Notes: generated by a model not told the origin, from the letters alone. 64,000 bases of DNA from Acidimicrobiia bacterium (GCA_035637335.1 DASPXI010000030.1:634-64633), one strand, 5' to 3'. Shown: positions 24,069-63,501, numbered from the stretch's first letter. Program-made: numbers and translations.

Positions 24069-24087
24069 TACGCGTAGGATCCACGGC

Positions 24088-40148: not shown

Positions 40149-40158
40149 TCCCGGCTCG

Positions 40159-40986
40159 CTACCTCAGGCGCCAGTCGATGCGCGTGCCCGACTCGAACAG
40201 CTTCTGGCCCTCGGCGATCGAGTTCTGATCCGTCCCGAGCCCGACATACGCGTAGCCCAGCCGCAGGGCCTGCCGCTGCCCGAGCTCGCGCGCCGCCCAG
40301 ATGGCGCGCACGGTGCCCTCGATCGCGAGGGCCGGTTGCGACGCGATCGCGTTGGCGGCCCAGGCCGTCCGCTCGTGCAGCTCCTCTTTCGGCGCGACCT
40401 CGGACACGAGGCCGATCTCATATGCCCGTTGCGCGGACAGGCGCTCGTAATTGCCGAGCAGCGAGAGTCGCATGATCTCGCCGAACGGCATGATTCCCGA
40501 CATGTGGATGGGCTCGAACGCGGCCGTCATTCCGTACGTGACGTGCGGGTCGAAGAAGGTGGCGTGGTCGGCGGCGATGATGAACTCGACCTCACCCAGC
40601 ATGTAGAACGCGCCGCCGCAGGCCATGCCGTTCACGGCCGCGATCACCGGCTTCCAGAGATCCGAGCTCTTGGGACCGAGGTTGTCGCCGGGATCGTTGA
40701 ACATGAACGGCGTCGATCCCGACCCGACGACATCCGGGTCGGTCGTGTCGTCGGCGGCGTCGCCCATCTGCTCCATGCGGTCGATGCCGGTGCAGAACGC
40801 CTTGTCACCCGCGCCCGTGAGCACGATGCAGCGCACGTCGTCGTGACGACGCAGACCTCGCCAGAGGTTGTGCAGCTCGCGCTGCATCAGGGAGTTGAAC
40901 GCGTTCAGCCGGTCCGGGCGGTTGAGCGTGACCCACGCGACACCGTCCCGCTCCTCGTACAGGAGCGTGTCGAAGTCGGTGTTCAC
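40159..40986 (-). CDS. enoyl-CoA hydratase/isomerase (crotonase) family
   Basis: VAWVTLNRPDRLNAF...VLTGAGDKAFCTGID...IAAVNGMACGGAF. Confidence 0.85.
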   Translation of the reverse strand: MNTDFDTLLYEERDGVAWVTLNRPDRLNAFNSLMQRELHNLWRGLRRHDDVRCIVLTGAGDKAFCTGIDRMEQMGDAADDTTDPDVVGSGSTPFMFNDPGDNLGPKSSDLWKPVIAAVNGMACGGAFYMLGEVEFIIAADHATFFDPHVTYGMTAAFEPIHMSGIMPFGEIMRLSLLGNYERLSAQRAYEIGLVSEVAPKEELHERTAWAANAIASQPALAIEGTVRAIWAARELGQRQALRLGYAYVGLGTDQNSIAEGQKLFESGTRIDWRLR

Positions 40987-44594: not shown

Positions 44595-44666
44595 ACGCCC
44601 AGTATCGCCGCGTCGGGCCTGATGCGTGCACGGACGACCGCGGTCATGGTCGACGCACGCATCGGT

Positions 44667-44681
44667 CTGACGAAGCGTCAG
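44667..44681. promoter_or_regulatory. 15-bp variant palindrome CTGACG-aag-CGTCAG
   Basis: gtCTGACgaagcGTCAGtt lies 16 nt upstream of ATG 44697. It has the same half-sites as the 16-bp motif, with a spacer 1 nt shorter. Confidence 0.45.
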
Positions 44682-44696
44682 TTACGGTTGCCCCTC

Positions 44697-45536
44697 ATGC
44701 AGCTCGGCGTGACGATGTTCGGGACCGACCTGTCGATGCGGCCGGACGAGCTCGCGCGTGAAGCCGAGAACCGCGGCTTCGCGTCGTTATACCTGGCCGA
44801 GCACACGCACATCCCGGTGAGCCGGCGAACGCCGCCGCCGACCGGGGACGACGTCTTACCGGAGTACTACTCGCGCTCCTTCGACCCGTTCGTCGCGCTC
44901 GCGATGGCCGCGGCCGCGACGGACCGGCTCCGGGTGGGGACCGGCATCTGCCTCGTTGCCCAGCGCGACCCAATCGTGACGGCCAAGGCCGTGTCGAGCC
45001 TCGATCACTTGTCGGGGGGCCGGTTCGTCTTCGGGGTGGGCTTCGGTTGGAACGAGGACGAGATCGAAAACCATTGCGTACCGATGGCGCGCCGCCGCGA
45101 CGTCGCCCGTGAGCACATGCTCGCGATGCAACGTCTGTGGGCCGACGAGCAAGCCAGCTTCGACGGGGAGTTCGTGCAGCTACCGCCGAGCTGGTCGTGG
45201 CCCAAGCCCGTGCAGCGGCCGTGGCCGCCCGTGCTGATCGGCGGCGCGGCCGGACCGACGGTCTTCGAGCACGTGGCCGAGTACGCAGACGGCTGGATGC
45301 CCATCGGCGGCGCCGGCGTCCGCGCCGCCTTGCCGGAGCTGCAACGAGCGGCGGAGGCACGCGGGCGGGACCCGTCGACGGTTCGCATTGTCCCGTTCGG
45401 GACGATCCCCGATCCGGGCAAGCTCGACTACTACGCCGGGCTCGGCATCGACGAGGTCGTCCTGCGCGTGCCAGTCGGCGGACGCGAGGTCGCCCTCCCG
45501 GTGCTTGACGAGTACAGCCGACAGGTCAACGCGTGA
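44697..45536 (+). CDS. LLM-class F420-dependent oxidoreductase
   Basis: GFASLYLAEHTHIP...GGRFVFGVGFGWN...PKPVQRPWPPVLIGG. ATG 44697. The track ORF 44109-45536 is over-extended. Confidence 0.8.
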   Translation: MQLGVTMFGTDLSMRPDELAREAENRGFASLYLAEHTHIPVSRRTPPPTGDDVLPEYYSRSFDPFVALAMAAAATDRLRVGTGICLVAQRDPIVTAKAVSSLDHLSGGRFVFGVGFGWNEDEIENHCVPMARRRDVAREHMLAMQRLWADEQASFDGEFVQLPPSWSWPKPVQRPWPPVLIGGAAGPTVFEHVAEYADGWMPIGGAGVRAALPELQRAAEARGRDPSTVRIVPFGTIPDPGKLDYYAGLGIDEVVLRVPVGGREVALPVLDEYSRQVNA

Positions 45537-46549
45537 CCGACGCTGACCGGGTGCGCTTCGGGACGCTGGGAGCGGCGCGTATCACGCCCAACGCGTTGAT
45601 CCGACCGGCTCGACAGGTACCGGATGCCGAAGTCGTCGCCATCGCGGCGCGCGACCCGAGTCGCGCGGAGAGATTCGCGCGGAAGCACGACATCGCGAAT
45701 GTGCACGCGACGTACGACGACGTCATCGCCGATCCCGACGTCGACGCCATCTACAACCCTCTTCCGAACAGCCTGCACGCGGAGTGGACGCTCAAGGCGA
45801 TCGCGGCCGGGAAGCACGTGCTGTGCGAGAAGCCGTTCACCTCGAACGCCGCCGAAGCCGAGATGGTGCGGGATGCGGCCGATGGCAGCGGGCTGGTCGT
45901 GATGGAGGCGTTCCACTACCGCTACCACCCGCTGGCCCAGCGCATGCACGACGTCGTCGCCGGCGGCGAGCTCGGCGCGCTGCAGCACATCGAGACGTGG
46001 ATGTGCATCCCGCTGCCGATGTTCAAGGACATCCGGTACCAGTACCCGCTCGCAGGCGGCGCCGCGATGGACGTCGGCTCATACACGGTCCACCAGCTAC
46101 GCCTGCTCGGCGGGGACGAGCCCGAGGTTGTCGACGCGCGAGCGCGGCTTCAGTCACCGAACGTCGACCGGTGGATGCAGGCCGACGTGCGCTGGCCGGT
46201 AGGTCACACGGGTCGCATGACGTGTGCGCTGTGGTCGAGTACGCCCCTGAAGCTCGCGATCCGCGCTACGGGCGAACGGGGCGAGCTGCGCGTGTTCAAC
46301 CAGACGGGCCCGCAGTTCTACAGCCGCTTCTCCGTGTTGAGCGACGGCAGGAGGCGCCGCGAGAAGTTTCCGCGCAAGGCCACCTACACGTATCAGCTCG
46401 AGGCGTTCATCAGCGCGGTATTGCGCCGCACGCCGGTGCTGACACCGCCTTCCGACTCGGTGCAGAACATGCGCGTCATCGACGCCGTCTACCGCGCCGC
46501 CGGCCTCCCGCGACGCGGGGAGAACGTCACAGGCGTTCGAGGATCGTGA
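45533..46549 (+). CDS. Gfo/Idh/MocA family oxidoreductase
   Basis: VRFGTLGAARI...EKPF pattern. GTGA overlap with the upstream gene. Confidence 0.75.
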   Translation: MTDADRVRFGTLGAARITPNALIRPARQVPDAEVVAIAARDPSRAERFARKHDIANVHATYDDVIADPDVDAIYNPLPNSLHAEWTLKAIAAGKHVLCEKPFTSNAAEAEMVRDAADGSGLVVMEAFHYRYHPLAQRMHDVVAGGELGALQHIETWMCIPLPMFKDIRYQYPLAGGAAMDVGSYTVHQLRLLGGDEPEVVDARARLQSPNVDRWMQADVRWPVGHTGRMTCALWSSTPLKLAIRATGERGELRVFNQTGPQFYSRFSVLSDGRRRREKFPRKATYTYQLEAFISAVLRRTPVLTPPSDSVQNMRVIDAVYRAAGLPRRGENVTGVRGS

Positions 46550-47678
46550 CGTTGGCCTGACCGCCGCCTTCGCACATCGTCTGGAGGCCGAAGCGGCCGC
46601 CGGTGCGCTCGAGCTCGTACAGCAGCGTGGTCATCAAGCGGGCGCCGGTGGCGCCGAGCGGGTGGCCGAGGGCGATGGCACCTCCGTTCACGTTCACCTT
46701 GCCGAGATCAGCGCCGGTCTCCTTCTGCCACGCCAGCACGACTGATGCGAACGCCTCGTTGATCTCGACGACGTCGATGTCGTCGAGCGACATGCCGGTG
46801 CGCTCGAGCGCGTACGCGGTGGCGGGGATCGGCGCGGTCAGCATGAAGATCGGGTCCGCGCCCCGGACGCTCAGGTGGTGGATGCGCGCCCGCGGCGTCA
46901 GGCCGTGCTCCTCGAGGGCACGCTCCGACACGACGAGCATGGCCGCGGCCGCATCCGAGATCTGGCTCGACACGGCCGCGGTGAGCCGGCCGCCTTCGAC
47001 CAGCGGTGGGAGGGAGGCCATCCGCTCGAGCGACGTATCGCGCCGCGGGCCCTCGTCGGCGGTGACGTCGCGGTAGGGGAGGATCTCGCGCTCGAAGCGT
47101 CCCTCGTCGATCGCGGTGACGGCGCGCCGGTGGCTCTCGAGCGCGAACGCCTCCATGTCGTCGCGCGAGATGCCCCACTTCTCGGCGATTATCTCCGCGC
47201 CCCGGAACTGCGACACCTCCTGGGTGCCGTAGCGGGCGCGCCATCCCTCGGAGCCCGTGAACGGGTCGTCGAAGCCCATGGGCTGCGCGACCGTCATGGC
47301 CGACGAGATCGGGATCATGCTCATGTTCTGCACACCACCGGCGACGATCACGTCGTTCGTGCCGCTCAGGACGGCCTGGGCGGCGAAATGCACTGCCTGC
47401 TGCGATGAACCGCACTGCCGGTCGACAGTCGTGCCCGGCACGTCGTCGGGCAGGCCGGCGGCGAGCCAGCACGTGCGCGCGATGTCGCCTGCCTGCGGGC
47501 CAATGGTGTCGACACAGCCGAACACGACGTCCTCGACCGCGGCCGGATCGATCCCGGTGCGGTCCAGGAGACCGGTGATGACGTGGGCGCCAAGGTCCGC
47601 TGGGTGCACGGCGGCCAGCCCGCCGCCCTTCTTGCCCACTGGCGTTCGCACGGTGTCGACGATGTAGGCCTCGGCCAT
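46527..47678 (-). CDS. acetyl-CoA C-acyltransferase (thiolase)
   Basis: DRQCGSSQQAV, NGGAIALGHPLGATG and CEGGGQA. ATG 47678 shares its A with the upstream TGA. The 3' end overlaps the convergent Gfo gene by 23 nt. Confidence 0.9.
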   Translation of the reverse strand: MAEAYIVDTVRTPVGKKGGGLAAVHPADLGAHVITGLLDRTGIDPAAVEDVVFGCVDTIGPQAGDIARTCWLAAGLPDDVPGTTVDRQCGSSQQAVHFAAQAVLSGTNDVIVAGGVQNMSMIPISSAMTVAQPMGFDDPFTGSEGWRARYGTQEVSQFRGAEIIAEKWGISRDDMEAFALESHRRAVTAIDEGRFEREILPYRDVTADEGPRRDTSLERMASLPPLVEGGRLTAAVSSQISDAAAAMLVVSERALEEHGLTPRARIHHLSVRGADPIFMLTAPIPATAYALERTGMSLDDIDVVEINEAFASVVLAWQKETGADLGKVNVNGGAIALGHPLGATGARLMTTLLYELERTGGRFGLQTMCEGGGQANVTILERL

Positions 47679-48667
47679 CACTGCTCCTCTGCAGCTGTCT
47701 CGCCGTCCAGGATCGCGCGTCCCACCCGCTCGCGGTGCCAGGCGGCGTCGCCCCATGATGCCGCGAGCGCCCAGGCCCGCTTCATCCAGAGGTGGAGGTC
47801 GTACTCGGTCGTGTACCCGATGGCGCCGTGTACTTGAAGGGCGACTCGCGCCGCGAGGAGCGCAGCCTCCGAGGCCCGTGCCTTTGCCGTCGAGACGTGG
47901 ACCGATCGCTGGGAATCACGGCGCGCGAGCGAATGCGCTGCCCGGTAAATGAGCGGACGGGCGAACTCGAGTGCGAGCGCGACATTGGCGAGGTGGTGCT
48001 TCACGGCCTGGAACGAGCCGATCGGCACGCCGAACTGGTGGCGTTCCTTCGCGTAGTCGACGGTCGTGTCGAGCATGTGCTGTGCCAGCCCGATCAGCTG
48101 CGCAGCAACGCCGAGTGCGCCGCGGTCGAACGCGAGCGCGGCATCGCGCACATCGCCGACCTTCGTCGCACGACTTGGGTCCCACTGCACGCTGCTGAGC
48201 CGCCGTGACCGGTCGACGGAAGCACGCGGTGTGAGCGTCGCGGCGGCCGGGTCCACGAGATAGAGGTGCTTGTCGCGTTCGAGCAGCAGCGCGGTGGCCG
48301 ACGTTGCGTACGGCACAAGCGGACCGCCGGCGACGAAGAGGCTGGATTCCGTCACGGCGTCGGGGACGTGCTGGGCGACCGCCGGCAGCGCGACGGCGGT
48401 GTGCTCGACGATCGGCTCGGGGAGGGCGAACCGTCCCGTCTCCTCGAGGATCAGCGTGACCGCGATCTCGTCGACGCCGAGGTTTCCGGCAACGTCGGGA
48501 TGACTGAGGCCGGTGACGCCCATCTCGGACAGCGCGTCCCAGGCGCCACTCCGGCCGTCGGAATTCGTCCACGCTTCACGCACGCGGTCAGGCGGACACT
48601 CCTTCTCGAGGAGATCGTGCACGGCGTCGCGAAACGCGAGCTGCTCGTCGGTGAACGCGAACCTCAC
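47678..48667 (-). CDS. acyl-CoA dehydrogenase, small/non-catalytic-subunit-like
   Basis: 329 aa with VHGAIGYTTEYDLHLWMKRA. It lacks the SEPxAGSD and GGxxE motifs. It sits immediately downstream of the catalytic-type ACAD, a heteromeric alpha/beta arrangement like the mycobacterial FadE pairs. Confidence 0.8.
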   Translation of the reverse strand: MRFAFTDEQLAFRDAVHDLLEKECPPDRVREAWTNSDGRSGAWDALSEMGVTGLSHPDVAGNLGVDEIAVTLILEETGRFALPEPIVEHTAVALPAVAQHVPDAVTESSLFVAGGPLVPYATSATALLLERDKHLYLVDPAAATLTPRASVDRSRRLSSVQWDPSRATKVGDVRDAALAFDRGALGVAAQLIGLAQHMLDTTVDYAKERHQFGVPIGSFQAVKHHLANVALALEFARPLIYRAAHSLARRDSQRSVHVSTAKARASEAALLAARVALQVHGAIGYTTEYDLHLWMKRAWALAASWGDAAWHRERVGRAILDGETAAEEQ

Positions 48668-48671
48668 GCGG

Positions 48672-49823
48672 TTATCTCCTGGGCAGCCCGAGCACCCGCT
48701 CGGCCACGACGTTGCGCTGGATCTCGTTCGTGCCCGCGTAGATCGGGCCCGACAACGCGAACTGCCAACCCTTCATCCACGCCGCGTCATCACCGTCGAC
48801 CAGCTCGGCGTCGGCGCCGAGCAGGTCGAGCGCGGTGGCGTGGAGCCGGACGTCGAGCTCCGACCAGAAGATCTTCACCAGGCTCGCCTCCGGCCCGGTG
48901 CGTCCGCCCTCCATGAGCCGGGTGACGGTCCAGAACGTCTGCCAGCGGTACGCGTCGGCGTCGATCCACGCGCGTATGACGGCGTCGCGCACCGTCGGGT
49001 CGGCGTCACCCGCATGCGCGCGGTAGAGCTCGATCAGTCGCGCCGCGGTGGCCATGAACCGCCCCGGGCTCCTGAGCGTGAGCCCGCGCTCGGAGCCGGT
49101 GGTCGCCATCGCGACGCGCCAACCTTCGTGCACACCGCCGAGCACGTCGCGGTCGGGCACGAACACGTCTTCGAGGAACACCTCGGCGAAGCCCTCGTCA
49201 CCGTCGAGGCGCTCAACGGGTCGCACGGTGACGCCGTCGGCGTGGAGGTCGACGAGAAAATAGGTGAGCCCGTGGTGCCGCTCCGCCTCGGGATCGGTGC
49301 GAAACACGCCGAACATCCGGTCGCAGAACGCGCCCCGTGTCGTCCACGTCTTCTGCCCCGACAGGCGCCACCCGCCGTTCGCCTCATCACGCACGGCCCG
49401 CGACTTGATGCCGGCCAGGTCGCTGCCCGCGTTCGGTTCCGACCAGCCCTGGCACCACGTCTCCTCGGCCGACGCCATCTTCGGCAGGTTGCGGTCCTGT
49501 TGCTCCTTCGTGCCCAGCTCGAACAGCGTGGGCGCGAGAAGGAAAATGCCGTTCTGGGTCACGCGCTGCGGACCGCCGGCGCGGTAGTACTCCTCCTCGA
49601 AGATCAGCCACTCCATGAGGCTGGCTTCGCGTCCGCCGTACTCCCGCGGCCATGACACGACCGCCCACCGGGCGTCGAACAGGGCGCGCTCCCATTCCTT
49701 GTGGAGCGCGAATCCTTCACGCGTATCGCCGGACGGCAACGCGGGCCGGGGCACGTTCGCCTCCAGCCACGCGCGCGCCTCGGCGCGGAACGCCTGCTCT
49801 TCTTCGGTGAAGGTGAGGTCCAC
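48672..49823 (-). CDS. acyl-CoA dehydrogenase, catalytic large-subunit-like
   Basis: WSEPNAGSDLAGI and IYAGTNEIQRNVVAERVLGLP. GTG 49823. Confidence 0.85.
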   Translation of the reverse strand: MDLTFTEEEQAFRAEARAWLEANVPRPALPSGDTREGFALHKEWERALFDARWAVVSWPREYGGREASLMEWLIFEEEYYRAGGPQRVTQNGIFLLAPTLFELGTKEQQDRNLPKMASAEETWCQGWSEPNAGSDLAGIKSRAVRDEANGGWRLSGQKTWTTRGAFCDRMFGVFRTDPEAERHHGLTYFLVDLHADGVTVRPVERLDGDEGFAEVFLEDVFVPDRDVLGGVHEGWRVAMATTGSERGLTLRSPGRFMATAARLIELYRAHAGDADPTVRDAVIRAWIDADAYRWQTFWTVTRLMEGGRTGPEASLVKIFWSELDVRLHATALDLLGADAELVDGDDAAWMKGWQFALSGPIYAGTNEIQRNVVAERVLGLPRR

Positions 49824-49829
49824 GCCCGT

Positions 49830-51023
49830 TCAGCGGGTGAGGATCACCGACGAGCCGTGCCCGAAGAGGCCCTGGTTGACCGTGAGCCCGACCTTCGCGC
49901 CTTCGACTTGCCGGTCGCCGGCGTCGCCCCGCAGCTGCCACGCGATCTCGCACACCTGCGCCAGCGCCTGCGCCGGGACGGCCTCGCCGAAGCACGCCAG
50001 GCCGCCGCTCGGGTTCACCGGGATACGGCCGCCGACCGTCGTCGCGCCGTCGTGCACGAGCTTCTCGGCCTCACCGGGACCGCAGAGCCCGATGTTCTCG
50101 TACCAGTCGAGCTCGAGCGCGGTCGACAGGTCGTACACCTCGGCCACGTCCAGGTCGTCGGGCCCGAGGCCGGCTTCGGCGTAGGCCTGGTGTGCGATCG
50201 CGTCGCGGAAGGTGACCGGCCCGGCGGGCACCGCGGTGGCCGAGTCGGTGGCGAAGTCGGGCATCTCGATCACGGTGTTCGGATACGACGGGGTCACCGT
50301 CGAGATCGCGGCGACGCGCACCGGGGCTGTGACCCCCTTGCGCTTCGCATAATCCATGCTCGACACCACGACGGCCGCGGCGCCGTCGCTCGTCGCGCAG
50401 ATGTCGAGCAGTCGGAGGGGCTCGGCGACGACCGGCGACGCCATCACCTCTTCTTCGGTGACGGCCTTGCGGTACCGCGCGTTGGGGTTCGACAGCCCGT
50501 GGGCCGCGTTCTTCACCTTGACCTTGGCGAAGTCGGCGGGCGTGGCGCCGAAGAGCTCCATGCGACGACGGGCATAGAGCGCGAAGTACGTGGGGTTCGT
50601 CGCGCCGAGCAGCCGGAACCGCAGCCAGTCGGGATCGTCACCACGCTCGCCCGCGGTGGGGGCGAGGAAGCCCTTCGGCGTCGTGTCGGCGCCGACGACG
50701 AGCGCGACGTCGCAGAGGCCGGACAGGATCTGCGCCCGCGCCGCGTTCAACGCCGTGGCCCCCGACGCGCACGCCGCGTAGCTGCTCGCCACGGGCGCGC
50801 CCTGCCAGCCGAGCGCCTGCGCAAACGTCGCTCCCGACACGTAACCGGGATAGCCGTTGCGGATCGTGTCGGCGCCGGACACGAACTGGATGTCACTCCA
50901 GTCGAGGCCGGCGTCGGCGAGTGCGGCGCGACTGGCTTCGATGCCGTACTCGACGAAGTTGCGGCCCCACTTGCCCCACGGGTGCATTCCGACCCCGAGG
51001 ACGGCGACGTCGTGATCAGCCAT
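49830..51023 (-). CDS. thiolase-like lipid-transfer (Ltp/SCP-x-type) protein
   Basis: MADHDVAVLGVGMHPWGKW...YAACASGATAL...IPVNPSGGLACFGEA. It overlaps the DUF35 stop by 8 nt. Confidence 0.8.
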   Translation of the reverse strand: MADHDVAVLGVGMHPWGKWGRNFVEYGIEASRAALADAGLDWSDIQFVSGADTIRNGYPGYVSGATFAQALGWQGAPVASSYAACASGATALNAARAQILSGLCDVALVVGADTTPKGFLAPTAGERGDDPDWLRFRLLGATNPTYFALYARRRMELFGATPADFAKVKVKNAAHGLSNPNARYRKAVTEEEVMASPVVAEPLRLLDICATSDGAAAVVVSSMDYAKRKGVTAPVRVAAISTVTPSYPNTVIEMPDFATDSATAVPAGPVTFRDAIAHQAYAEAGLGPDDLDVAEVYDLSTALELDWYENIGLCGPGEAEKLVHDGATTVGGRIPVNPSGGLACFGEAVPAQALAQVCEIAWQLRGDAGDRQVEGAKVGLTVNQGLFGHGSSVILTR

Positions 51024-51468
51024 CGGCCCGCGCTCCCTCGATCGGCTTCCACTTCCAGACGACGTACTCGTGCTCGTCGTCCTCGACCAGCGTGCCCAGC
51101 GTGAGCTGGACCTCGTCGCCCACACGAAGGGCGGCGGGGTCGACGCCGTCGGCGATCTGTCCGAGCACGACCATCTTCTCCTCGGGCAGCTCGACCGCCG
51201 CCACCGAGAACGGCTCGAACGGATCAGCGGCGACGTACGGCGCCGGCGGCGCGTAGTGGTTGGTCGTGAACGACCAGATCGTCCCCCGGTTGGACAGCGG
51301 CACCTCGTCGAACTCGGTGCCGTCGCAGCCCGGGTTCCGGCAGAAGCCCGACGCCTTGGGGAAGAAGTAGCTGCCGCATCTCGTGCAGCGGTTGCCGAGC
51401 AGACGCGGGTCGGCGTCGTCGAGCGTGAACCAGCCGTCGACTGCCGGGACGCGGTCCTTCGTGGTCAT
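51016..51468 (-). CDS. DUF35 OB-fold/zinc-ribbon protein (Ltp partner)
   Basis: LLGNRCTRCGSYFFPKASGFCRNPGC zinc ribbon followed by an OB-fold region. ATGA overlap with ipdC. Confidence 0.8.
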   Translation of the reverse strand: MTTKDRVPAVDGWFTLDDADPRLLGNRCTRCGSYFFPKASGFCRNPGCDGTEFDEVPLSNRGTIWSFTTNHYAPPAPYVAADPFEPFSVAAVELPEEKMVVLGQIADGVDPAALRVGDEVQLTLGTLVEDDEHEYVVWKWKPIEGARADG

Positions 51469-52532
51469 GCCTCGCCCTTCTCGAGCCGGTTCAACGTCTG
51501 CTCCGCTTCGTCGACGATCCTCGCGACGAGCTCGGCCACCGTGGGCAGCTCGTCGATCACGCCGACGCCCTGGCCCGTGGGCAGTATGCCGGTCTCGAGC
51601 CGTCCATCGACCATGGTGGCCTTGGTGAGCATGGGCGCGTTGGCGGCCATCGCCACCTGCGACCACGTCAGCCCTTCCTTGCGCTTCATGGCCAGACCCT
51701 CGCGCGCGAGCGCCCGCAACGACGTGCCCGTCAGCTTGCGGAAGGCGAGCGCGTTGCGCAGGGCGCGGGGGAGGGCGGTGAGCCTTCCCGCGTGCTCGAG
51801 ATGGTCGACGACGTCGGTGCGGATCACGCGCTGCGGATAGCCGTCGATGCGCTGCGTGACGACGGTGCCGGTGACCGCAGTGTCGAGGTACACGTCCTTG
51901 ACCGTGTCGGGCACGGTGCTCTCCTTGGTGAGCAGGAACCGCGTGCCCATGGCCACGCCCGCCGCGCCCCACGCGAGGGCGGCGACGAGGCCGCGGCCGT
52001 CGGTGAACCCGCCGGCGGCAAGCACCGGGATGTCGACGGCGTCGACGACGGCGGGGAGCAACAGCGAGGTCGGAATGGTGCCGGTGTGGCCGCCGCCCTC
52101 GGCGCCCTGGGCGATGAGCGCGTCGACGCCCCACGCCGCCACCTTCTCGGCGTGACGTGGCGCGCCGACGGTCGGCATGGTGACGACGCCCGCGTCGCGC
52201 AATCGCTTCACGAGACGCTCGCCGGGCGCCTGGGCGAAGCTGGCGACGCGGACGCGCTCGCGGACGAGCATGTCGATGCGCTGGTCGACGTCGTCCCGGT
52301 CGGCGCGCAGGTTCACGCCGAACGGCTGGTCGGTGCGTCCCTGCACCTCGTGGATGGCGTCCTCGAGCTGGTCGTACGTCATCGTCGCCGACGCGAGGAT
52401 GCCGAGGGCGCCAGCCGCGCTCGTCGCTGACGTCAGGCGCGCACCGGCCACCCAGCCCATGCCCGTCTGCACGATCGGGTACCGGACGCCGAACAGATCG
52501 CATGCACTGGTGTGGAGCGCGGGGTGGGTCAT
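51465..52532 (-). CDS. ipdC: nitronate monooxygenase-family flavoprotein, syntenic with mycobacterial IpdC
   Basis: YPIVQTGMGWVAGARL and AQGAEGGGHTG motifs. It sits directly downstream of ipdAB as in the mycobacterial locus. ATGA overlap with ipdB. Confidence 0.7.
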   Translation of the reverse strand: MTHPALHTSACDLFGVRYPIVQTGMGWVAGARLTSATSAAGALGILASATMTYDQLEDAIHEVQGRTDQPFGVNLRADRDDVDQRIDMLVRERVRVASFAQAPGERLVKRLRDAGVVTMPTVGAPRHAEKVAAWGVDALIAQGAEGGGHTGTIPTSLLLPAVVDAVDIPVLAAGGFTDGRGLVAALAWGAAGVAMGTRFLLTKESTVPDTVKDVYLDTAVTGTVVTQRIDGYPQRVIRTDVVDHLEHAGRLTALPRALRNALAFRKLTGTSLRALAREGLAMKRKEGLTWSQVAMAANAPMLTKATMVDGRLETGILPTGQGVGVIDELPTVAELVARIVDEAEQTLNRLEKGEA

Positions 52533-53290
52533 CCCGGGAATTCCTTGGTGCGCATATCGTTCGGGTCCAGCACGTCGCGGATGAGTAACAGCTCCTCGGC
52601 GTTGGGAGCACGCGATTCCGGAACACCATCGGGTATTTGCAATTCGAACCCGGTGGCGGCGACGACCTCATCCACGGTGACACCGGGATGCACGGACCGC
52701 AGACGCATCGTGTGTGCCGGCGTCTCGAAGTCGAAGGTGCCGAGGTTGCTCACGACACGAGGGATGCGGTGGAAGCGCGCCGCTTGCGAACCGAGCTTGC
52801 CGGCGCGGTCGTACCCGATGCCGGTGACGACGTCGACGTGCTCGACGAAGACCTTCGGCGAGTGGTTCGGCACCCAGTAGCTCGTGGGGTCGTTGATGGT
52901 GTTGCCCGGCGCGCCCCGGAAGCCGAGCATCTGCACCTTCGGCGCGTCGAGCGGCCCGATCGACGCGATGTTCTGGTTGCCGAAGCGGTCGATCTGGGTC
53001 GCCCCCATCATCACGTGGCGGCATCCCGACCACGTGATCTCCAGCATCATCCGGTACGGGTTCCACGCCTCGATCACCTTCGGAGCGTCGGGCACGCCTA
53101 TCGGCAGATCGTTACTGATGAACAGCGCCTCGCCGTCGGTGAGGAGCAGGTCGGGCTCGAACGTCGCCCGCGCCAGCCGGCCGCCAAGCATCGGGATCGT
53201 GCCAATCGGGTTGGCCACGATCTCGCCGTCGCCGCGGAACGCGTCGGCGCAGGCGACGACGCACACCTCGGCCCGGCTGAAGTCGCTCAC
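52529..53290 (-). CDS. ipdB: CoA-transferase-fold ring hydrolase, subunit B
   Basis: 253 aa. GTG 53290 forms a GTGA overlap with ipdA. Glutaconate-CoA-transferase-like beta-subunit pattern (MGATQIDRFGNQN). Confidence 0.75.
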   Translation of the reverse strand: MSDFSRAEVCVVACADAFRGDGEIVANPIGTIPMLGGRLARATFEPDLLLTDGEALFISNDLPIGVPDAPKVIEAWNPYRMMLEITWSGCRHVMMGATQIDRFGNQNIASIGPLDAPKVQMLGFRGAPGNTINDPTSYWVPNHSPKVFVEHVDVVTGIGYDRAGKLGSQAARFHRIPRVVSNLGTFDFETPAHTMRLRSVHPGVTVDEVVAATGFELQIPDGVPESRAPNAEELLLIRDVLDPNDMRTKEFPG

Positions 53291-54138
53291 GACAACCCGA
53301 CCTGGGCGAGGTAGGCGGCGTGGTTCGGGAGGTCGACGTACTTCGCCCGGAACGCGTCCCAAGCTTCCGGCGACTTGGCGCTGGCGGCGTACTGGCGCTG
53401 GAACGCCTCGTCGCGCTCGTAATCGGGCGCACAGGACGTGAAGTGCGCGCCGTACGGGGCTTCGACGACGGCGTCGGTCAGGTGGCGCGGCAGACGCAGG
53501 CTTTCGACCGGTCCTTCGGCGAGGAAGTCCTCCGTGCCGACGATCTGCTCCACCGACATGAAGCGCTTCGTCGCCGCCCGGAGCATGAGGTCGTCCATGT
53601 AGGGGTCGACACTGAGGAACTGTCCGTTGCCGCGCTGGTCGCCCCGGTTGACGTGCACGATGGCGGCGTCGAGCACGATCGCCGGCGCGGCCACGAGCTC
53701 CTCGCCGTCGTCGTACGGCGAGCGGATGGTCCGCAATCCGGGATGGGCGCGGAACAGGTCTGACCCCAGCCCGATCCGGGTCGGCAGGAAGGGGACGCGC
53801 CAGGCTGCGGCCTGGAGCCCGAGATAGAACGTGCCCTCGTCGTGCTGCACGGTCGCGATCCGCCGTGACTCGACCGCGGCCCGGAAATGCGGCTCCAGTG
53901 GGATGGAGTCGAGCGAGACGAACGCGAACACGACCTTGGCGACCTTTCCGGCCGCACACAGGAGTCCGACATCGGGTCCGCCGCACGAGACGACCGTGAG
54001 GTCGGAGAGGTCGGACCGCGCGATGGCGCGCACCACGCTCATGGGCTTGCGGCGCGAGCCCCACCCGCCGATTCCCAGCGTCATGCCGTCGTGCAGCTCG
54101 GCGACGACATCGTCTTCTGTCGCGCGCTTGTCCGTCAT
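53287..54138 (-). CDS. ipdA: CoA-transferase-fold ring hydrolase, subunit A
   Basis: GMTLGIGGWGSRRKPM, DLTVVSCGGPDVGLLCAAGKV, FVSLDS and EAPYGAHFTSCAPDYERDEAFQRQYA match my memory of mycobacterial IpdA block for block. Confidence 0.8.
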   Translation of the reverse strand: MTDKRATEDDVVAELHDGMTLGIGGWGSRRKPMSVVRAIARSDLSDLTVVSCGGPDVGLLCAAGKVAKVVFAFVSLDSIPLEPHFRAAVESRRIATVQHDEGTFYLGLQAAAWRVPFLPTRIGLGSDLFRAHPGLRTIRSPYDDGEELVAAPAIVLDAAIVHVNRGDQRGNGQFLSVDPYMDDLMLRAATKRFMSVEQIVGTEDFLAEGPVESLRLPRHLTDAVVEAPYGAHFTSCAPDYERDEAFQRQYAASAKSPEAWDAFRAKYVDLPNHAAYLAQVGLS

Positions 54139-54882
54139 CTACTTCTTGTCGACGAACGCGTCGCGTGCCTCGTCGGCGACGCCGGTGAGATTGAGCTCGA
54201 ACGTGTATCCCTGCTCGTACCGATACGACTTCTTGACGTCGACAGGGTCGATGCCGTTCAGCGATTCCTTGGCCGCCCGGATCACCATGGGGTCCTTTTC
54301 GGCGATGCGGCGGGCGAGGGCGTAGGCGGCGTCTCGCAGCCGGTCGTGCTCGACCACGGCGAGCACGGAGCCGTAGTGGTGGAGCTCCTGCGCCGTCACG
54401 GTGGTCGCCGTGTACACCATCTCCCGCATCTTGTGCTGGGGAACGAGACGGGCCAGATGCGTGGCCGCGCCGAGCGCCCCCCGGTCGACCTCGGGGAGCC
54501 CGAAGGTGGCGTCGGTCGTGGCGAGGATGATGTCGGCGTTGCCGGCAAGACCGACGCCGCCACCGAGGCAGTAGCCGTGGACGGCGGCGATCACCGGCAC
54601 CGCGCATTCGTACACGGCCGCGAAGGCGGCGAAGCAACCGCGATTGGCGCCGACGAGGGCATGAAAGCCTTCGGTGCGCTGCATCTCCTTGATGTCGACG
54701 CCGGCGTTGAAGCCCTTGCCCTCGGCGCGCAGGATCACGACGCGGACGCGCGGGTCGTCGCCGAGCCCGCGTATCGTGTCGGCGAGCTCGAACCATCCGG
54801 CGACGGTCAACGCGTTGACCGGCGGGTTGTCCATCACGACCTCGGCGATGCCGTCGCCGTCGACCGCGTGCGAGATGCCCAT
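54139..54882 (-). CDS. echA20: enoyl-CoA hydratase-family protein, syntenic with EchA20
   Basis: Crotonase motifs (VVILRAEGKGFNAGVD, IAAVHGYCLGGG). It is the first gene of the echA20-ipdA-ipdB-ipdC order. Confidence 0.7.
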   Translation of the reverse strand: MGISHAVDGDGIAEVVMDNPPVNALTVAGWFELADTIRGLGDDPRVRVVILRAEGKGFNAGVDIKEMQRTEGFHALVGANRGCFAAFAAVYECAVPVIAAVHGYCLGGGVGLAGNADIILATTDATFGLPEVDRGALGAATHLARLVPQHKMREMVYTATTVTAQELHHYGSVLAVVEHDRLRDAAYALARRIAEKDPMVIRAAKESLNGIDPVDVKKSYRYEQGYTFELNLTGVADEARDAFVDKK

Positions 54883-54894
54883 GCGTTCCTGAAT

Positions 54895-54909
54895 CTGATG
54901 GCCCGTCAG
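54895..54909. promoter_or_regulatory. 15-bp variant palindrome (aATCTGA-tggcccg-TCAGATg)
   Basis: Lies in the 49-bp divergent region between echA20 and the SDR at 54932. Read as CTGAt-ggccc-GTCAG, it resembles the 44667 variant. Confidence 0.45.
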
Positions 54910-54931
54910 ATGTGAGGGCTACCTTATCCGC

Positions 54932-55711
54932 ATGGCGGATCCGCTGGACATGGCGGACAAAGCGGTGATCGTCACCGGCGGGTGTCGCGGCGTGGGGCGC
55001 GGGATCGCGGAGCGGTTCCTCACAGCCGGCGCGCACGTCGTCGTCTGCTGCCGGCACGAGCCCGAGACGTTGCCGCGCGGCGGTGATCGCGACGCGGCGT
55101 TCGTCGCCGCCGACGTGCGGGAGCCGGCGGAGATCGACAAGGTCATCGGGTTCGCGACTGTGCGATTCGGGCGGGTCGACGTGCTCGTGAACAACGCCGG
55201 GGGGTCGCCGCCCGCCGACTCGGCCACTGCGTCACCGAAGTTCTCGACTGCGATCATCTCGCTCAACCTCATCGCGCCGCTCGTGTTCGCGCAGAAGGCG
55301 AACGCGGTCATGCAGGAGCAGGCGGACGGCGGGGTCATCATCAACATCGCCAGCGTCAGCGGGCTCCGCCCATCGCCGGGGACCGCCGCCTATGGCGCGG
55401 CCAAGGCGGGGTTGCTGAACCTGACCGAGACGCTCGCGGTGGACTACGCGCCAAAGGTGCGGGTCAACGCGGTCACCGCAGGGCTCGTGAAGACCGAGCA
55501 GTCACACCTCTTCTACGGCGACGAGGAGGGCCTGAAGGCCGTGGGCGCGACTGTGCCGCTGGGCCGGATGGCCGAGCCGTCCGACATCGGCGACGTGTGC
55601 CTGTTCCTCGCATCGCCCCTCGCCAGCTACGTGAGCGGCGAGAGCATCGTGGTGCATGGCGGCGGCGAGCGCCCTGCCTACCTCGACGCCGCGAAGAACC
55701 TGTCTTCTTGA
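54932..55711 (+). CDS. SDR family oxidoreductase
   Basis: AVIVTGGCRGVGRGIA, NNAGG and YGAAKAG. Divergent from echA20, as SDR genes are in the mycobacterial locus. Confidence 0.85.
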   Translation: MADPLDMADKAVIVTGGCRGVGRGIAERFLTAGAHVVVCCRHEPETLPRGGDRDAAFVAADVREPAEIDKVIGFATVRFGRVDVLVNNAGGSPPADSATASPKFSTAIISLNLIAPLVFAQKANAVMQEQADGGVIINIASVSGLRPSPGTAAYGAAKAGLLNLTETLAVDYAPKVRVNAVTAGLVKTEQSHLFYGDEEGLKAVGATVPLGRMAEPSDIGDVCLFLASPLASYVSGESIVVHGGGERPAYLDAAKNLSS

Positions 55712-55754: not shown

Positions 55755-56537
55755 TTACGGGTGCTGGCTGCTGACGGAGACGACCTCGCCGGTCATGTAG
55801 CCGGAGTAGTTGCTGGCGAGGAAGACGATCACGTTGGCGACCTCCCACGGCTCCGCCGAGCGACCGAAGGCCTCGCGCGTCACGAGCTCGTCGATGGTCT
55901 CCTGGGGCATGACCTTCGCCAGGTGCTCGTGGACGGCCAGGCTCGGAGCGACGGCGTTGACGCGCACGTTGGCGGGCGCGGCCTCGATCGCCGCGCACCT
56001 GGTGAGCGCCATCACCCCGGCCTTGGCTGCCGCGTAGTGCGCCTGTCCTTCCTGCGCCCGCCAGCCGAGCACCGACGCGTTGTTGACGATGACGCCATGG
56101 CGGCGCGGCAGCATGTACTGCAACGCGGCCCGGGTGCAGCGAAACGTCCCGTTGAGGGTCACGTCCAGGACGCGCGACCACTGCTCGTCGGTCATCTCGA
56201 CGAGAGGAGCGGTCCCTCCGAGCCCGGCGTTGTTGATCACCACGTCGAGGGCGCCTGTCGTCCCGATCGCGGTGTCGAACAGCGCGTCGACCTGCCGCTG
56301 GTCGGTCACGTCGCACACCGCCGTCGCCGGGCGCACACCCGTGACGTTCTCGAGCTGCTCCGCGGCTTCGCCGAGGCGGCGCTCGTGCTGGTCGCTCAGC
56401 ACCACGACCGCGCCTTCCTCGGCGCAGCGCTTCGCGGTCGCGAACCCGATGCCGGTGCCCGCGGCCGCCGTCACCAACACGCTCTTGCCATCCAGGAGCG
56501 CGTGGGAAGCCGGGTACGGCGGTACCGAGGAAGTCAC
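55755..56537 (-). CDS. SDR family oxidoreductase
   Basis: VLVTAAAGTGIGFATA, NNAGLGG and YAAAKAG. GTGA overlap with the upstream ACAD. Confidence 0.85.
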   Translation of the reverse strand: MTSSVPPYPASHALLDGKSVLVTAAAGTGIGFATAKRCAEEGAVVVLSDQHERRLGEAAEQLENVTGVRPATAVCDVTDQRQVDALFDTAIGTTGALDVVINNAGLGGTAPLVEMTDEQWSRVLDVTLNGTFRCTRAALQYMLPRRHGVIVNNASVLGWRAQEGQAHYAAAKAGVMALTRCAAIEAAPANVRVNAVAPSLAVHEHLAKVMPQETIDELVTREAFGRSAEPWEVANVIVFLASNYSGYMTGEVVSVSSQHP

Positions 56538-57721
56538 GCCGTCACCTTGGGCTCCGGCGGCAAACCAAGCGCGCGCTCGCCGATTACATTGCGCTGAATC
56601 TCGTTCGAACCGCCATAGATCGTGTCGGCCCGCGTGAACAGGAACAATCGCTGCGCCGGGCTCAACTCGTACCGCGCCGCCGGAACGACAGCCGCCTCGG
56701 GGCCGAGCACGTCGACCGCGAGCTCACCGAGTCGCTGGTGAAAGCCCGCCCAGTACAGCTTGTGGATCGCGGTCTGGGGAGTGAGATCGCCGCGAGCCAT
56801 CGACGTCAGGCTCCGCAGGGCGTTGTACCGCATGATGCGCAAACCGATCCATGCCTCCGCCAGCCGCTGCCGGATGACCGTGTCGGACGAGCGCCCGTTC
56901 TTCTTTGCGGTCTCGGTGATCTCCGTCAACTCGTTCTCGAACGACAGCTGCTGCCCGAGCGTCGACGCGCCACGCTCGAACGCAAGCGTGCCCATCGCGA
57001 CCTTCCAGCCCCCGTTTACCTCGCCGACGACGTTGCCGGCGGCGGTGCGTGCGCCGTCGAAGAACACCTCGTTGAACTCCGATGTCCCCGTGAGCTGCAC
57101 GATGGGACGGAGCTCGATCCCCGGCTGACGCATCGGGACGAGCAGGTACGAGATGCCGCGATGGCGCGGCGCGTCCCGATCGGTGCGGCACAGCACGAAG
57201 CACCAGTCAGCCCAGTGCGCCAGCGACGTCCAGATCTTCTGGCCCGTGATCACCCACTCGTCGCCGTCGCGCTCGGCTCGTGTCTGGACGTTGGCCAGGT
57301 CGGAACCGGCGTCGGGTTCCGAGTACCCCTGGCACCACACCTCCTCGCCCGACGCGATCGGCGGGAGAAAGCGGCGCTTCTGCTCATCGGAGCCGAAGTG
57401 CAGGATCGTCGGGCCGATGAGTCCTTCGCCGACGATTCCGACCCGGCCCGAGCCGCCGGCGCGGGCGTACTCCTCGTAGAAGATCACCTGCTGCAGCAGC
57501 GACGCGTCGCGCCCGCCGTACTGCTCGGGGAAGGACAGGCACGCCCAGCGCCCCGCACCGAGCGCGCGCTCCCACGCCAGGCGCTCCTCGAACAACGCAT
57601 GCTCGTCGCCCGGGCCGCCCCGTCCGCGCACGCTCGCGAACCGGCCCGTGAGCTGGTCGGTCAGCCACTCGCGCGCCTCGGCGCGAAACGCCTCGTCCTC
57701 GGGCGCGTACCGGAGGTTCAC
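56534..57721 (-). CDS. acyl-CoA dehydrogenase, catalytic large-subunit-like
   Basis: YSEPDAGSDLANV and IYGGSNEIQRNVIGERALGLP. GTG 57721 (VNLRYAPEDEAF). The track ORF is over-extended to 57907. Confidence 0.85.
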   Translation of the reverse strand: MNLRYAPEDEAFRAEAREWLTDQLTGRFASVRGRGGPGDEHALFEERLAWERALGAGRWACLSFPEQYGGRDASLLQQVIFYEEYARAGGSGRVGIVGEGLIGPTILHFGSDEQKRRFLPPIASGEEVWCQGYSEPDAGSDLANVQTRAERDGDEWVITGQKIWTSLAHWADWCFVLCRTDRDAPRHRGISYLLVPMRQPGIELRPIVQLTGTSEFNEVFFDGARTAAGNVVGEVNGGWKVAMGTLAFERGASTLGQQLSFENELTEITETAKKNGRSSDTVIRQRLAEAWIGLRIMRYNALRSLTSMARGDLTPQTAIHKLYWAGFHQRLGELAVDVLGPEAAVVPAARYELSPAQRLFLFTRADTIYGGSNEIQRNVIGERALGLPPEPKVTA

Positions 57722-57762: not shown

Positions 57763-58299
57763 ATGCGTTCTCTTCGTCGCTATTTCGTGTTCGGACCCCT
57801 GATCGCCGCAGCCGTTGCATTCGCCGATGCGGCGCCGGCGGCAGCGAAGGACACCGGCGTCTGCACCCTGTTGACGCGCTCGGAGGCCGGGAAGCTCCTC
57901 GGGGCAAAGGTCGTGAAGACCGAGAAGAAGACGAGCAAGATCAACGACGCCCAGGAGTGCACCTACAAGACGAACAAGGCCCAAAAACAGTTCAAGGATC
58001 GCGGTGCGAAGATGCAGCTCGAGGTGACCGTACAGCCCGTCACGGACAAGCTGCGGGCCGAGCTGCAGCGCATCCCGACCAACGAGGGGGAGCGGGTCGA
58101 AGGTCTCGGCGACGAGGCGTACGCGACGAAGTTCGACTATGTCATAGCCGTCTCCGGCAACACCGCCGTGCAGGCGAAGCTGCAGAACTACCAGGGCTCG
58201 CCGACGAAGTTCCGCAGCGTGTCGGAAGGCGCAGTACGCATGGCGTTGCCGCGCCTCGACCGGGTATCGGTGAAGCCGCCAAGCAGCGCGCCGAGCTAG
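57763..58299 (+). CDS. secreted protein (DUF3558-like, two conserved Cys)
   Basis: Signal peptide MRSLRRYFVFGPLIAAAVAFADA. The mature part is Lys-rich, with GVCTLLTRSEAGKLLG and ECTY. Lower GC than the flanks. Confidence 0.65.
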   Translation: MRSLRRYFVFGPLIAAAVAFADAAPAAAKDTGVCTLLTRSEAGKLLGAKVVKTEKKTSKINDAQECTYKTNKAQKQFKDRGAKMQLEVTVQPVTDKLRAELQRIPTNEGERVEGLGDEAYATKFDYVIAVSGNTAVQAKLQNYQGSPTKFRSVSEGAVRMALPRLDRVSVKPPSSAPS

Positions 58300-60632: not shown

Positions 60633-60648
60633 CGTCCCTCTCGTCGAC

Positions 60649-60664
60649 CTGACGCTCGTGTCAG
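60649..60664. promoter_or_regulatory. palindromic operator candidate CTGAC-N6-GTCAG
   Basis: gaCCTGACgctcgtGTCAGac lies 17 nt from the CoA-transferase ATG and 54 nt from the amidohydrolase ATG. Confidence 0.6.
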
Positions 60665-62330: not shown

Positions 62331-62335
62331 TGGGC

Positions 62336-63493: not shown

Positions 63494-63501
63494 CTGCCCG
63501 G

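Follow-up and report, generated by a model that had tools for sequence, protein, structure and literature searches.

A predicted HIP (ring C/D) catabolic operon with an embedded DUF35-Ltp gene pair in Acidimicrobiia

The current work concerns a stretch of 64,000 nucleotides from an Acidimicrobiia bacterium (GCA_035637335.1 DASPXI010000030.1:634-64633; the whole stretch is hereafter named the window), and in particular an operon of nine minus-strand genes, g1 to g9, the products of which are related to enzymes of HIP (ring C/D) catabolism, a route that is linked to virulence in Mycobacterium tuberculosis and in which several steps are without assigned enzymes. The region is probably a compact HIP catabolic cluster of an uncultured soil actinobacterium, the nine genes forming a single coupled transcript, in which g5 and g6, encoding a DUF35 protein and a thiolase-like “lipid-transfer protein” (Ltp), would be an integral pair, with a C-C cleavage of the thiolysis type as its preferred role. 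HIP operons of this kind are known; what is new is the lineage, the operator and a newly supported and testable accessory pair, g5-g6, in ring C/D catabolism. Three independent comparative signals place this pair in the HIP pathway, namely its linkage to the cluster in Acidimicrobiia, an operator specific to this lineage that it shares with the cluster, and, in Streptosporangiales, a box of the KstR2 type, and a concrete, testable role is proposed for a gene family which has been reported as a requirement for growth on cholesterol and the function of which has never been assigned. Furthermore, in Acidimicrobiia, a mostly uncultured class that is abundant in both soil and aquatic habitats, the ring C/D cluster is found to be complete and compact and to follow another regulatory code. 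Should the pair have no part in the pathway, what remains would be a HIP operon of the ordinary kind in a lineage new for it.

Organisation of the operon and its ring-opening module

A stop-to-stop open reading frame (ORF) analysis combined with start mapping was performed on the minus strand between positions 46527 and 54882. The nine genes that were retrieved are joined, from g1 to g9, by a TAG directly followed by ATG, by GTGA, ATGA and ATGA, by an 8-nt overlap, a 6-nt gap and a 4-nt gap, and by TGATG, which matches exactly the nine genes and all eight junctions described in an earlier note on this DNA. An independent gene caller applied to a public contig of identical sequence (ENA ERZ27253196) returned the same nine genes with the same lengths, the G+C content at third codon positions is approximately 0.9 in their frames (the window as a whole having a G+C content of approximately 69%), and the family assignments of all nine hold in Pfam and NCBIfam scans. 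Since the widest intergenic gap in the operon is 6 nt, there is no space for internal promoters; a consensus scan, which is weak for high-GC actinobacteria, detected neither a sigma-70-like promoter nor an intrinsic terminator inside the operon. The order of the region is fadE30-ipdF, followed by a short-chain dehydrogenase/reductase (SDR) gene that diverges from echA20-ipdA-ipdB-ipdC-[DUF35-ltp]-fadE31-fadE32-fadA6 (Table 1). The 3’ end of g9 overlaps by 23 nt (46527-46549) the 3’ end of a convergent GFO-type oxidoreductase gene, and no terminator-like structure was detected at this site.

The closest IpdB-like relatives among 185,579 species genomes are nearly all metagenome-assembled genomes (MAGs) of Acidimicrobiia, with an identity of 65-88%, Actinospongicola halichondriae being the one cultured organism among them, and the contigs that share proteins with the window derive from soil metagenomes.

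Nocardia, Tsukamurella, Streptomyces and Nonomuraea have counterparts of the first four genes, at 54-74% identity and with the order kept. The product of g1 passes the NCBIfam equivalog PRK07938 (421 bits, cut-off 260), which we take to correspond to Rv3550; its gene abuts the ipdA-type g2, so that family and position both identify it as EchA20, and its counterparts at the echA20 position of the four genera share 63-74% identity with it. Regarding g2, a score of 309 bits was obtained to IpdA of Rhodococcus RHA1 (6co6_A) and of 294 bits to that of M. tuberculosis, versus 97 bits to the glutaconate CoA-transferase GctA, while g3 scored 284 bits to RHA1 IpdB (6co6_B) and 270 bits to the M. tuberculosis protein (6con_B), versus 54 bits to GctB; the identity of g2 and g3 to their actinomycete orthologs is approximately 54-62%. 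Glu101 of g2 (HDEG) aligns with the Glu of the MDEG motif of RHA1 IpdA, and we take it to be the equivalent of the catalytic Glu105 of that enzyme, as this residue is presumably numbered. In g3, a TDGEA motif, identical in IpdB of RHA1 and M. tuberculosis, is located where GctB has its catalytic VESG, a Gly being aligned under the GctB Glu. Judged from these sequence features, g2-g3 are members of the IpdAB clade (COCHEA-CoA hydrolase type) and not class I CoA-transferases proper. The product of g4 matches the Pfam family NMO with 279 bits, and is 58-62% identical to the gene that follows ipdB in actinomycetes and 46% identical to its counterpart on pNL2, a plasmid-borne HIP operon discussed below. 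The naming of g1 to g4 as EchA20, IpdA, IpdB and IpdC in the earlier note is thus borne out by the PRK07938 and IpdAB scores, and the g2-g3 pair is not closer to generic CoA-transferases, a result on which that note had made its reading depend.

The same set of HIP-CoA enzymes is encoded by the KstR2 regulon of M. tuberculosis and RHA1 (Rv3548c-Rv3565: echA20, ipdAB, ipdC, fadA6, ipdF, fadE30-33 and fadD3), with which the region shares both the SDR gene divergent from echA20-ipdA-ipdB-ipdC and the fadE30-ipdF order. In contrast to that regulon, fadE31-fadE32-fadA6 are here joined to the echA20 transcript, the DUF35-Ltp pair lies inside the operon, an fdxB/Rv3555c-type insertion is absent, neither fadD3 nor fadE33 was identified adjoining the operon, and the window lacks both kstR2 and a KstR2 box, a different palindromic operator being found instead.

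Table 1. Positions of the operon genes, of the adjoining HIP genes and of the predicted operators in the window
Feature	Position	Strand	Length	Description
g1	54139-54882	-	247 aa	Crotonase of the EchA20 (ring D hydrolase) type; the operon starts with this gene
g2	53287-54138	-	283 aa	IpdA-type alpha subunit (COCHEA-CoA hydrolase type)
g3	52529-53290	-	253 aa	IpdB-type beta subunit
g4	51465-52532	-	355 aa	IpdC-type FMN (NMO/FabK-like) reductase
g5	51016-51468	-	150 aa	Stand-alone DUF35 protein (zinc ribbon and OB fold), partner of g6
g6	49830-51023	-	397 aa	SCP2-thiolase-like “lipid-transfer protein” (Ltp)
g7	48672-49823	-	383 aa	Alpha-type acyl-CoA dehydrogenase, predicted FadE31 equivalent
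g8	47678-48667	-	329 aa	Short beta-type acyl-CoA dehydrogenase without middle domain, predicted FadE32 equivalent
g9	46527-47678	-	383 aa	Canonical degradative thiolase, predicted FadA6 equivalent, last gene of the operon
SDR, Rv3549c-position equivalent	54932-55711	+		Divergent from g1; passes NCBIfam equivalog PRK07856 (379 bits, cut-off 255)
SDR, IpdF equivalent	55755-56537	-		Passes NCBIfam equivalog PRK07831 (432 bits, cut-off 336); 66% identity to pNL2 ipdF position
Acyl-CoA dehydrogenase, alpha-type, FadE30 (IpdE1) equivalent	56534-57721	-		4-nt overlap with the IpdF-like gene
Predicted operator TCTGATGGCCCGTCAGA	54894-54910			Palindrome within the 49 bp that separate g1 from the divergent SDR gene
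Second operator copy TCTGACGAAGCGTCAGT	44666-44682			5’ end of the luciferase-like monooxygenase/GFO oxidoreductase unit

The DUF35-Ltp pair and its putative active site

By homology to the pathway of M. tuberculosis and RHA1, from which we infer every enzymatic step, IpdF and IpdC would convert 5-OH-HIC-CoA to HIEC-CoA, EchA20 would hydrolyse the five-membered ring, IpdAB would hydrolyse the six-membered ring to generate a beta-keto thioester, FadA6 would take off acetyl-CoA to yield MOODA-CoA, and FadE31-FadE32 would begin the beta-oxidation of the latter, the operon being controlled, as we predict, by a single 5’ operator of sequence TCTGACG-N3-CGTCAGA. A steroid origin of the substrate is presumed from the same homology. 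The HIP pathway involves several C-C cleavages, of which only that by FadA6 is assigned within the KstR2 regulon of M. tuberculosis, and the identity of the thiolase was called unclear by Crowe et al. (PMC5380842).

The product of g5 consists of the Pfam domains zf-ChsH2 and OB_ChsH2_C, and its best NCBIfam match is BbsA, with 53 bits, below the cut-off of that model. The product of g6 passes the NCBIfam equivalog PRK06059 (721 bits, cut-off 424) and, when compared with solved structures, scores 190 bits to SCP2-thiolase, 169 bits to BbsB and 114 bits to Ltp2. It keeps the thiolase nucleophile, Cys85 (AAC85ASG); an alignment to 6hsj and to at least 40 representatives bearing HDCF and GHP showed that HDCF is replaced by Y297DLS and GHP by G-E347-A. 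This signature (Cys85, Tyr297-Asp-Leu-Ser and Gly-Glu347) is invariant in 241 g6 orthologs from both actinobacterial classes concerned. Across the Acidimicrobiia loci (L002-L081, with the window as reference), conservation among the cluster proteins is highest for g6 and g9 (median identity 78%) and lowest for g8 (53%) and g5 (59%), and a homologue search with g6 and its Nonomuraea ortholog retrieved close relatives only.

In Ltp2 the catalytic Tyr is located in Y294DHF and is accompanied by a second catalytic Tyr, Tyr344, and in Sal the corresponding residues are those of Y302DCY (Tyr302 and Cys304) and Gln352, with a Gly at the position of the nucleophile (PMC12329534). Neither the YDHF motif nor Tyr344 of Ltp2 is present in g6, which has YDLS, Glu347 and Cys85; relative to Sal, Cys304 is replaced by Leu and Gln352 by Glu, the nucleophile Cys being kept; and of the SCP2-type thiolase set only the nucleophile Cys is present, the acid/base Cys and the His being gone. 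The predicted active site of g6 therefore matches none of the three characterised types. The earlier note had named g5-g6 a DUF35-Ltp aldolase pair, of which the DUF35 and Ltp parts stand, the aldolase activity being unproven for a protein that is without the Ltp2 and Sal signatures and carries a nucleophile Cys. With Ltp2-ChsH2(DUF35) and Sal-Shy(DUF35) the pair has in common the combination of a thiolase-superfamily protein with DUF35 and the Tyr of the YDxx motif; unlike in those complexes, however, the DUF35 protein is free-standing instead of being appended to a MaoC hydratase. The best sequence relatives of known activity are the benzoylsuccinyl-CoA thiolase BbsAB, the DUF35 subunit of which (BbsA) is free-standing as is g5, and the SCP2/SCPx type-1 thiolases, in all of which the nucleophile Cys is conserved, g6 differing from them in the absence of two of the three catalytic residues (YDLS for HDCF, GEA for GHP).

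SCP2-type and BbsAB enzymes favour alpha-substituted 3-oxoacyl-CoAs. Considering this preference, the several C-C cleavages for which FadA6 is the only assigned enzyme, and the signature of g6, a thiolase-like cleavage is preferred for the pair. Accommodated most likely in a DUF35-flanked dimer, g6 would perform a C-C cleavage for which M. tuberculosis has no dedicated enzyme, the preferred candidate being the thiolysis of a bulky or 2-methyl-branched 3-oxoacyl-CoA, such as the HIP side chain in its 3-oxo form or 2-methyl-3-oxoadipyl-CoA, the latter yielding propionyl-CoA and succinyl-CoA. Its catalytic set would be Cys85/Tyr297/Glu347 instead of Cys/His/Cys, with Glu347 and Tyr297 in the place of His and Cys.

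The main rival to this thiolase-like role, and like it a role that we infer, is that g5-g6 act within the HIP operon as a retro-aldolase of the Ltp2/Sal kind on a 3-hydroxyacyl-CoA (for instance hydrated delta2-MOODA-CoA or the HIP side chain after hydration), with Tyr297 as base and Glu347 as acid, thereby bypassing a dehydrogenase and a thiolase. This would agree with the loss of the thiolase His and acid/base Cys, with Tyr297 being located where Ltp2 and Sal have their catalytic Tyr and Glu347 where Ltp2 has Tyr344 and Sal has Gln352, and with the fact that these two characterised steroid aldolases each act in complex with a DUF35 domain (PMC12329534); it would leave unexplained, however, why a nucleophile that Sal has replaced by Gly is invariant in all 241 orthologs and why g6 is nearer to true thiolases (SCP2 and BbsB) than to Ltp2, and its product would be an aldehyde, for which neither the operon nor the conserved neighbourhood contains an aldehyde dehydrogenase. 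A retro-aldol role is thus considered unlikely, and thiolysis is retained as the preferred reading.

The M. tuberculosis pair Rv1628c-Rv1627c, consisting of a DUF35 protein and a “lipid-transfer protein” without an assigned function, has the same two-gene architecture and NCBI product name as g5-g6, which probably belong to this family. Rv1628c-Rv1627c is located far from the KstR2 cluster and is associated with a KstR box, not a KstR2 box: a KstR motif was predicted in the Rv1628c/Rv1629 intergenic region, upstream of Rv1628c (PMC1995591), and rv1627c is listed in the literature among the genes for which a requirement in cholesterol utilisation is predicted. As a tentative proposal, to which we would give somewhat less than even chances, g5-g6 would represent a conserved and so far unrecognised actinobacterial HIP enzyme with a novel catalytic set, cleaving a C-C bond for which no M. 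tuberculosis enzyme is assigned, and the Acidimicrobiia would possess a regulator with a new operator. If true, the role of g5-g6 would account for the need for rv1627c during growth on cholesterol.

Two other thiolase-like proteins are encoded in the window, at 62339-63496 (with its own DUF35 partner at 61884-62372) and at 39006-40163. Both look aldolase-like by their motifs and differ from g6 in having no nucleophile Cys (GYGGGAG, GVGGSTW) and in carrying YDAF.

Correspondence of g7 to g9 with proteobacterial HIP operons

The products of g7, g8, g9 and of the genes upstream of the operon were compared by reciprocal tblastn with the annotated HIP operon of Novosphingobium aromaticivorans plasmid pNL2, the order of which is ipdA-ipdB-ECH-ipdC-ECH-ACAD-ACAD-thiolase-NTF2-SDR-ACAD-ACAD-SDR-MaoC-KSI-thiolase-FadD3 (ECH, enoyl-CoA hydratase; ACAD, acyl-CoA dehydrogenase). 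This order is equal to that published for Comamonas CNB-2 and Sterolibacterium denitrificans, being ipdC, echA20, fadE31, fadE32, fadA6, Rv3548c, fadE33, fadE30 and ipdF (Crowe et al., PMC5380842 Table 1), so that each pNL2 gene can be referred to by its position.

The product of g7, in which Pfam identifies all three ACAD domains, and the protein at the fadE31 position are reciprocal best matches (55% identity, 420 bits, versus 268 bits for the upstream ACAD), and g8, which has the N- and C-terminal ACAD domains only and no middle domain, finds its best match at the fadE32 position (39-41%), the fadE33 position reaching only 31%. The thiolase g9 corresponds to the fadA6 position (SARO_RS19665; 65%, 490-512 bits), the second pNL2 thiolase being 33% identical, and it displays the Cys, NEAF, GHP and CEGGG motifs. 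The upstream ACAD and the fadE30 position are likewise reciprocal best matches (53%, 419 bits), and this protein scores 193 bits to T. curvata IpdE1 (6wy9_A) versus 135 bits for g7. Of the two SDRs, the IpdF equivalent reaches only 30% identity with the Rv3548c-position SDR, and the one divergent from g1 shares 54% identity with the pNL2 SDR upstream of ipdA and 55-58% with the SDR that diverges from echA20 (Rv3549c position) in Nocardia and Tsukamurella. The NCBIfam model PRK07801 is passed by g9 (719 bits, cut-off 591), which remains below the FadA5 equivalog PRK07850 (399 bits, cut-off 515). For g8, the best NCBIfam match is NF050027, that of IpdE2 (FadE33), at 119 bits against a cut-off of 450. 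The cluster of Streptomyces and Nonomuraea contains the same orthologs, with identities of 59-79% for most (74-79% for g9) and without g5-g6, an ortholog of the short g8-type ACAD (37-38%) being found in Streptomyces only.

From these comparisons, g7, g8 and g9 are the predicted fadE31, fadE32 and fadA6 equivalents of the ring C/D (HIP) pathway and not side-chain genes, the adjoining full-length alpha (g7) and short beta (g8) subunits being of the predicted FadE31-FadE32 alpha2beta2 type. The proteobacterial HIP (scd) operons (Comamonas testosteroni CNB-2/TA441, S. denitrificans and pNL2) have, as here, the ring-opening genes followed on the same strand by fadE31-fadE32-fadA6 and then by fadE30/ipdF. 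They differ in the order of echA20 relative to ipdAB, in an extra crotonase between ipdB and ipdC, in carrying NTF2, MaoC, KSI and a second canonical thiolase, and in having no DUF35-Ltp pair. Therefore, g1-g4 followed by g7-g9 represents the normal proteobacterial layout and involves no new coupling.

The earlier note had correctly described g7-g8 as an ACAD pair of the heteromeric type and g9 as a thiolase, as the Pfam and NCBIfam families confirm; it had regarded them as side-chain genes (igr-like and fadA5, respectively), and their coupling to ring-opening genes as a novel arrangement, neither of which stands. The wider reading that follows from it, of a hybrid operon joining ring C/D opening to side-chain enzymes (igr-like ACADs, a DUF35-associated aldolase of the Ltp2 type and a thiolase of the FadA5 type) and having as its substrate a HIP-like acid, bicyclic or alicyclic and bearing an alkyl side chain, instead of steroid-derived HIP, is improbable and is here largely refuted. 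It could draw on the fact that the side-chain enzymes come from the families to which g5-g9 also belong, on the 304 bits of g9 to FadA5, on the absence of ksh, kstD and hsa genes nearby, and on the nearly equal scores of g7 to IpdE1 and ChsE4 (135 versus 134 bits), which do not tell the two apart, the assignment of g7 being based on the synteny-based reciprocal matches; it is contradicted by the equivalog scores of g9, by the correspondence of g7-g9 to the fadE31/fadE32/fadA6 positions of a bona fide HIP operon with an order published for two further organisms, and by the lack of Ltp2 and Sal catalytic signatures in g6.

Linkage, operators and genomic surroundings

In order to assess whether g5-g6 accompany the HIP genes elsewhere, 80 related loci (1.26 Mb) were used as a comparison set, among which 55 Acidimicrobiia loci are long enough to be classified. 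The pair is located near ipdB in 45 of these, in at least four arrangements: directly after ipdC (28 loci), upstream and divergent (11), downstream with an insertion (3), after g9 (2) and elsewhere (1). Since the linkage survives rearrangement, a shared function is argued.

The predicted operator, a palindrome, is conserved in the orthologous g1/SDR intergenic regions with the consensus aTCTGACG-N3-CGTCAGAt. Its core, CTGAY-N5-RTCAG, occurs at 141 sites in the 80 loci, versus 2.7 in shuffled sequences, and 128 of the sites are located at most 200 bp upstream of cluster genes, with more than 46 preceding g1/SDR, 25 ipdC, 22 g7, 14 g5, 8 the fadE30-like gene and 5 g9. Thus, each cluster unit that is separated in the relatives bears its own operator, and this includes the DUF35-Ltp unit. 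No KstR2 box (AnCAAGnnCTTGnT) and no KstR box were found near the operon in the window, and the 80 Acidimicrobiia loci contain no exact match to the former. Located in the divergent region of the cluster, TCTGACG-N3-CGTCAGA is the predicted operator that stands in place of the KstR2 box in this lineage.

A corresponding association was observed outside the Acidimicrobiia. In Nonomuraea gerenzanensis, the g6 ortholog (72.6% identity), with the g5 ortholog (45.5%) directly upstream, lies among unrelated neighbours, at a distance of approximately 3 Mb from the ipd cluster, and the pair is preceded by AGCAAGCGCTTGTG, a KstR2-type box. In Planobispora, Streptosporangium and Thermoactinospora, the pair likewise follows an identical box, the upstream sequence having otherwise diverged, and the box is the sole conserved upstream element of the pair across the four Streptosporangiales genera. 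The fadA6-like and fadE30-like genes of Nonomuraea are preceded by AGCAAGCGCTTGGT. As a control, a KstR2 box (at most one mismatch) was retrieved from the intergenic region between the SDR gene and echA20 in Nocardia, Tsukamurella and one of two Streptomyces loci; in both Streptomyces loci the fadE30-like gene is preceded by such a box.

A role of g5-g6 in general lipid metabolism or housekeeping, unrelated to ring C/D catabolism and with the pair merely located in the cluster here, would suit the high conservation of the pair between two actinobacterial classes, its unrelated neighbours in Streptosporangiales (subtilase, Opp transporter and SAM hydroxide adenosyltransferase) and the loci without it, and is nevertheless very improbable in view of the linkage kept through the different arrangements, the cluster-specific operator upstream of separate pairs, and the KstR2-type box that marks the pair and the Nonomuraea fadA6-like and fadE30-like genes alike.

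Several observations weigh against the reading of the region as a HIP cluster with g5-g6 as an integral, thiolase-like part. The pair is absent within 8 kb in 10 of the 55 loci. Its g6 product is without the thiolase His and acid/base Cys, and the Tyr of its YD motif is the residue used by aldolases, so that a thiolase activity is not assured; a second canonical thiolase, at 17045-18289, could act on the HIP side chain. The membership in the Rv1628c-Rv1627c family is deduced from the PRK06059 equivalog, model length, product name and DUF35 adjacency rather than from a comparison with the M. tuberculosis sequences, and the FadE31/FadE32 assignment similarly denotes a positional equivalence to the proteobacterial operon and not a comparison with M. 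tuberculosis proteins. No IpdE2/FadE33 partner was identified for the FadE30-like ACAD, and no regulator for the palindrome was found among the TetR proteins of the window and the neighbouring 178-aa and 406-aa proteins. Finally, approximately 80 kb around the operon contain no kshA, kstD or hsa gene and no clear fadD3, so that the use of steroids by the organism is unproven.

Regarding the last point, the statement of the earlier note that no ksh, kstD or hsa genes are present in the window holds at the Pfam level, at which approximately 55 ORFs were scanned without finding a Rieske oxygenase, a KstD-type flavoprotein or an extradiol dioxygenase of HsaC size; none of these three was detected in approximately 9 kb past either end of the window. 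When pNL2 proteins were used to search the flanks of the 80 loci for KstD-, HsaC-, KSI- and FadD3-like genes, which says nothing of whole genomes, a KstD-like gene was found in one locus only (L056; 46% to the pNL2 FAD-binding protein), where a FadD3-like ligase is also located beside the cluster. The contigs of a second locus, L010, and of L056 are labelled as Burkholderiales and Spirochaetales MAGs, respectively, and contain an Acidimicrobiia-type cluster (66-72% IpdB identity), the labels probably being due to mis-binning.

Among candidates for the regulator, the two TetR genes of the window, considered for the role of kstR2, match 2ibd over the helix-turn-helix only (25 bits) and are not KstR2-like; homologs of them are missing from the related loci, in which the hypothetical proteins of 178 aa and 406 aa beside operator-bearing regions are likewise not conserved. 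The gene of the 406-aa protein, a zinc-ribbon/membrane protein without a Pfam family, diverges from a unit consisting of a luciferase-like monooxygenase (44646-45536) and the GFO oxidoreductase (45533-46549), which bears the second operator copy and may, as we suppose from this copy, belong to the same regulon. Palindromes of the form CTGAC-N6-GTCAG, being the operator half-sites with one extra spacer base, are present at 5489-5504, 17041-17056 and 60649-60664, in divergent intergenic regions that separate catabolic units, between an AMP-ligase and an amidohydrolase gene, an SDR and a thiolase gene, and a family III CoA-transferase and an amidohydrolase gene, respectively. In the related loci the N6 spacing occurs at 7 sites versus 141 for N5, and the N6 palindromes may represent a second operator class or the sites of a paralogous regulator.

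The segment 13426-18289 is a possible “upper HIP” beta-oxidation module, composed of a MaoC-like hydratase, a 181-aa ORF, an AMP-ligase, an SDR and a divergent canonical thiolase. The AMP-ligase is the best match in the window to the pNL2 FadD3-family ligase (35%) and remains below the NCBIfam cut-off for FadD3, and the SDR is 49% identical to that at the Rv3548c position of pNL2. On the plus strand, 23911-26253 encodes a fused two-module ACAD of approximately 710-780 aa, with an N-terminal half of the beta type (IpdE2-like) and a C-terminal half of the alpha type (pimC-large-like), and thus in effect a single-chain form of the heteromeric steroid-type ACADs. On the minus strand, 58299-60635 encodes a 778-aa protein with two family III CoA-transferase modules and adjoins one of the three amidohydrolase_2 genes of the window (5518-6699, 21823-23286 and 60718-61884). 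Amid the catabolic island, a 1121-aa protein with AAA_16, TPR and adenylate/guanylate cyclase domains is encoded on the minus strand at 33013-36375. In M. tuberculosis, the adenylyl cyclase gene Rv1625c neighbours rv1627c and cAMP influences cholesterol use (bioRxiv 10.1101/2021.08.03.454881), a parallel which may be coincidental.

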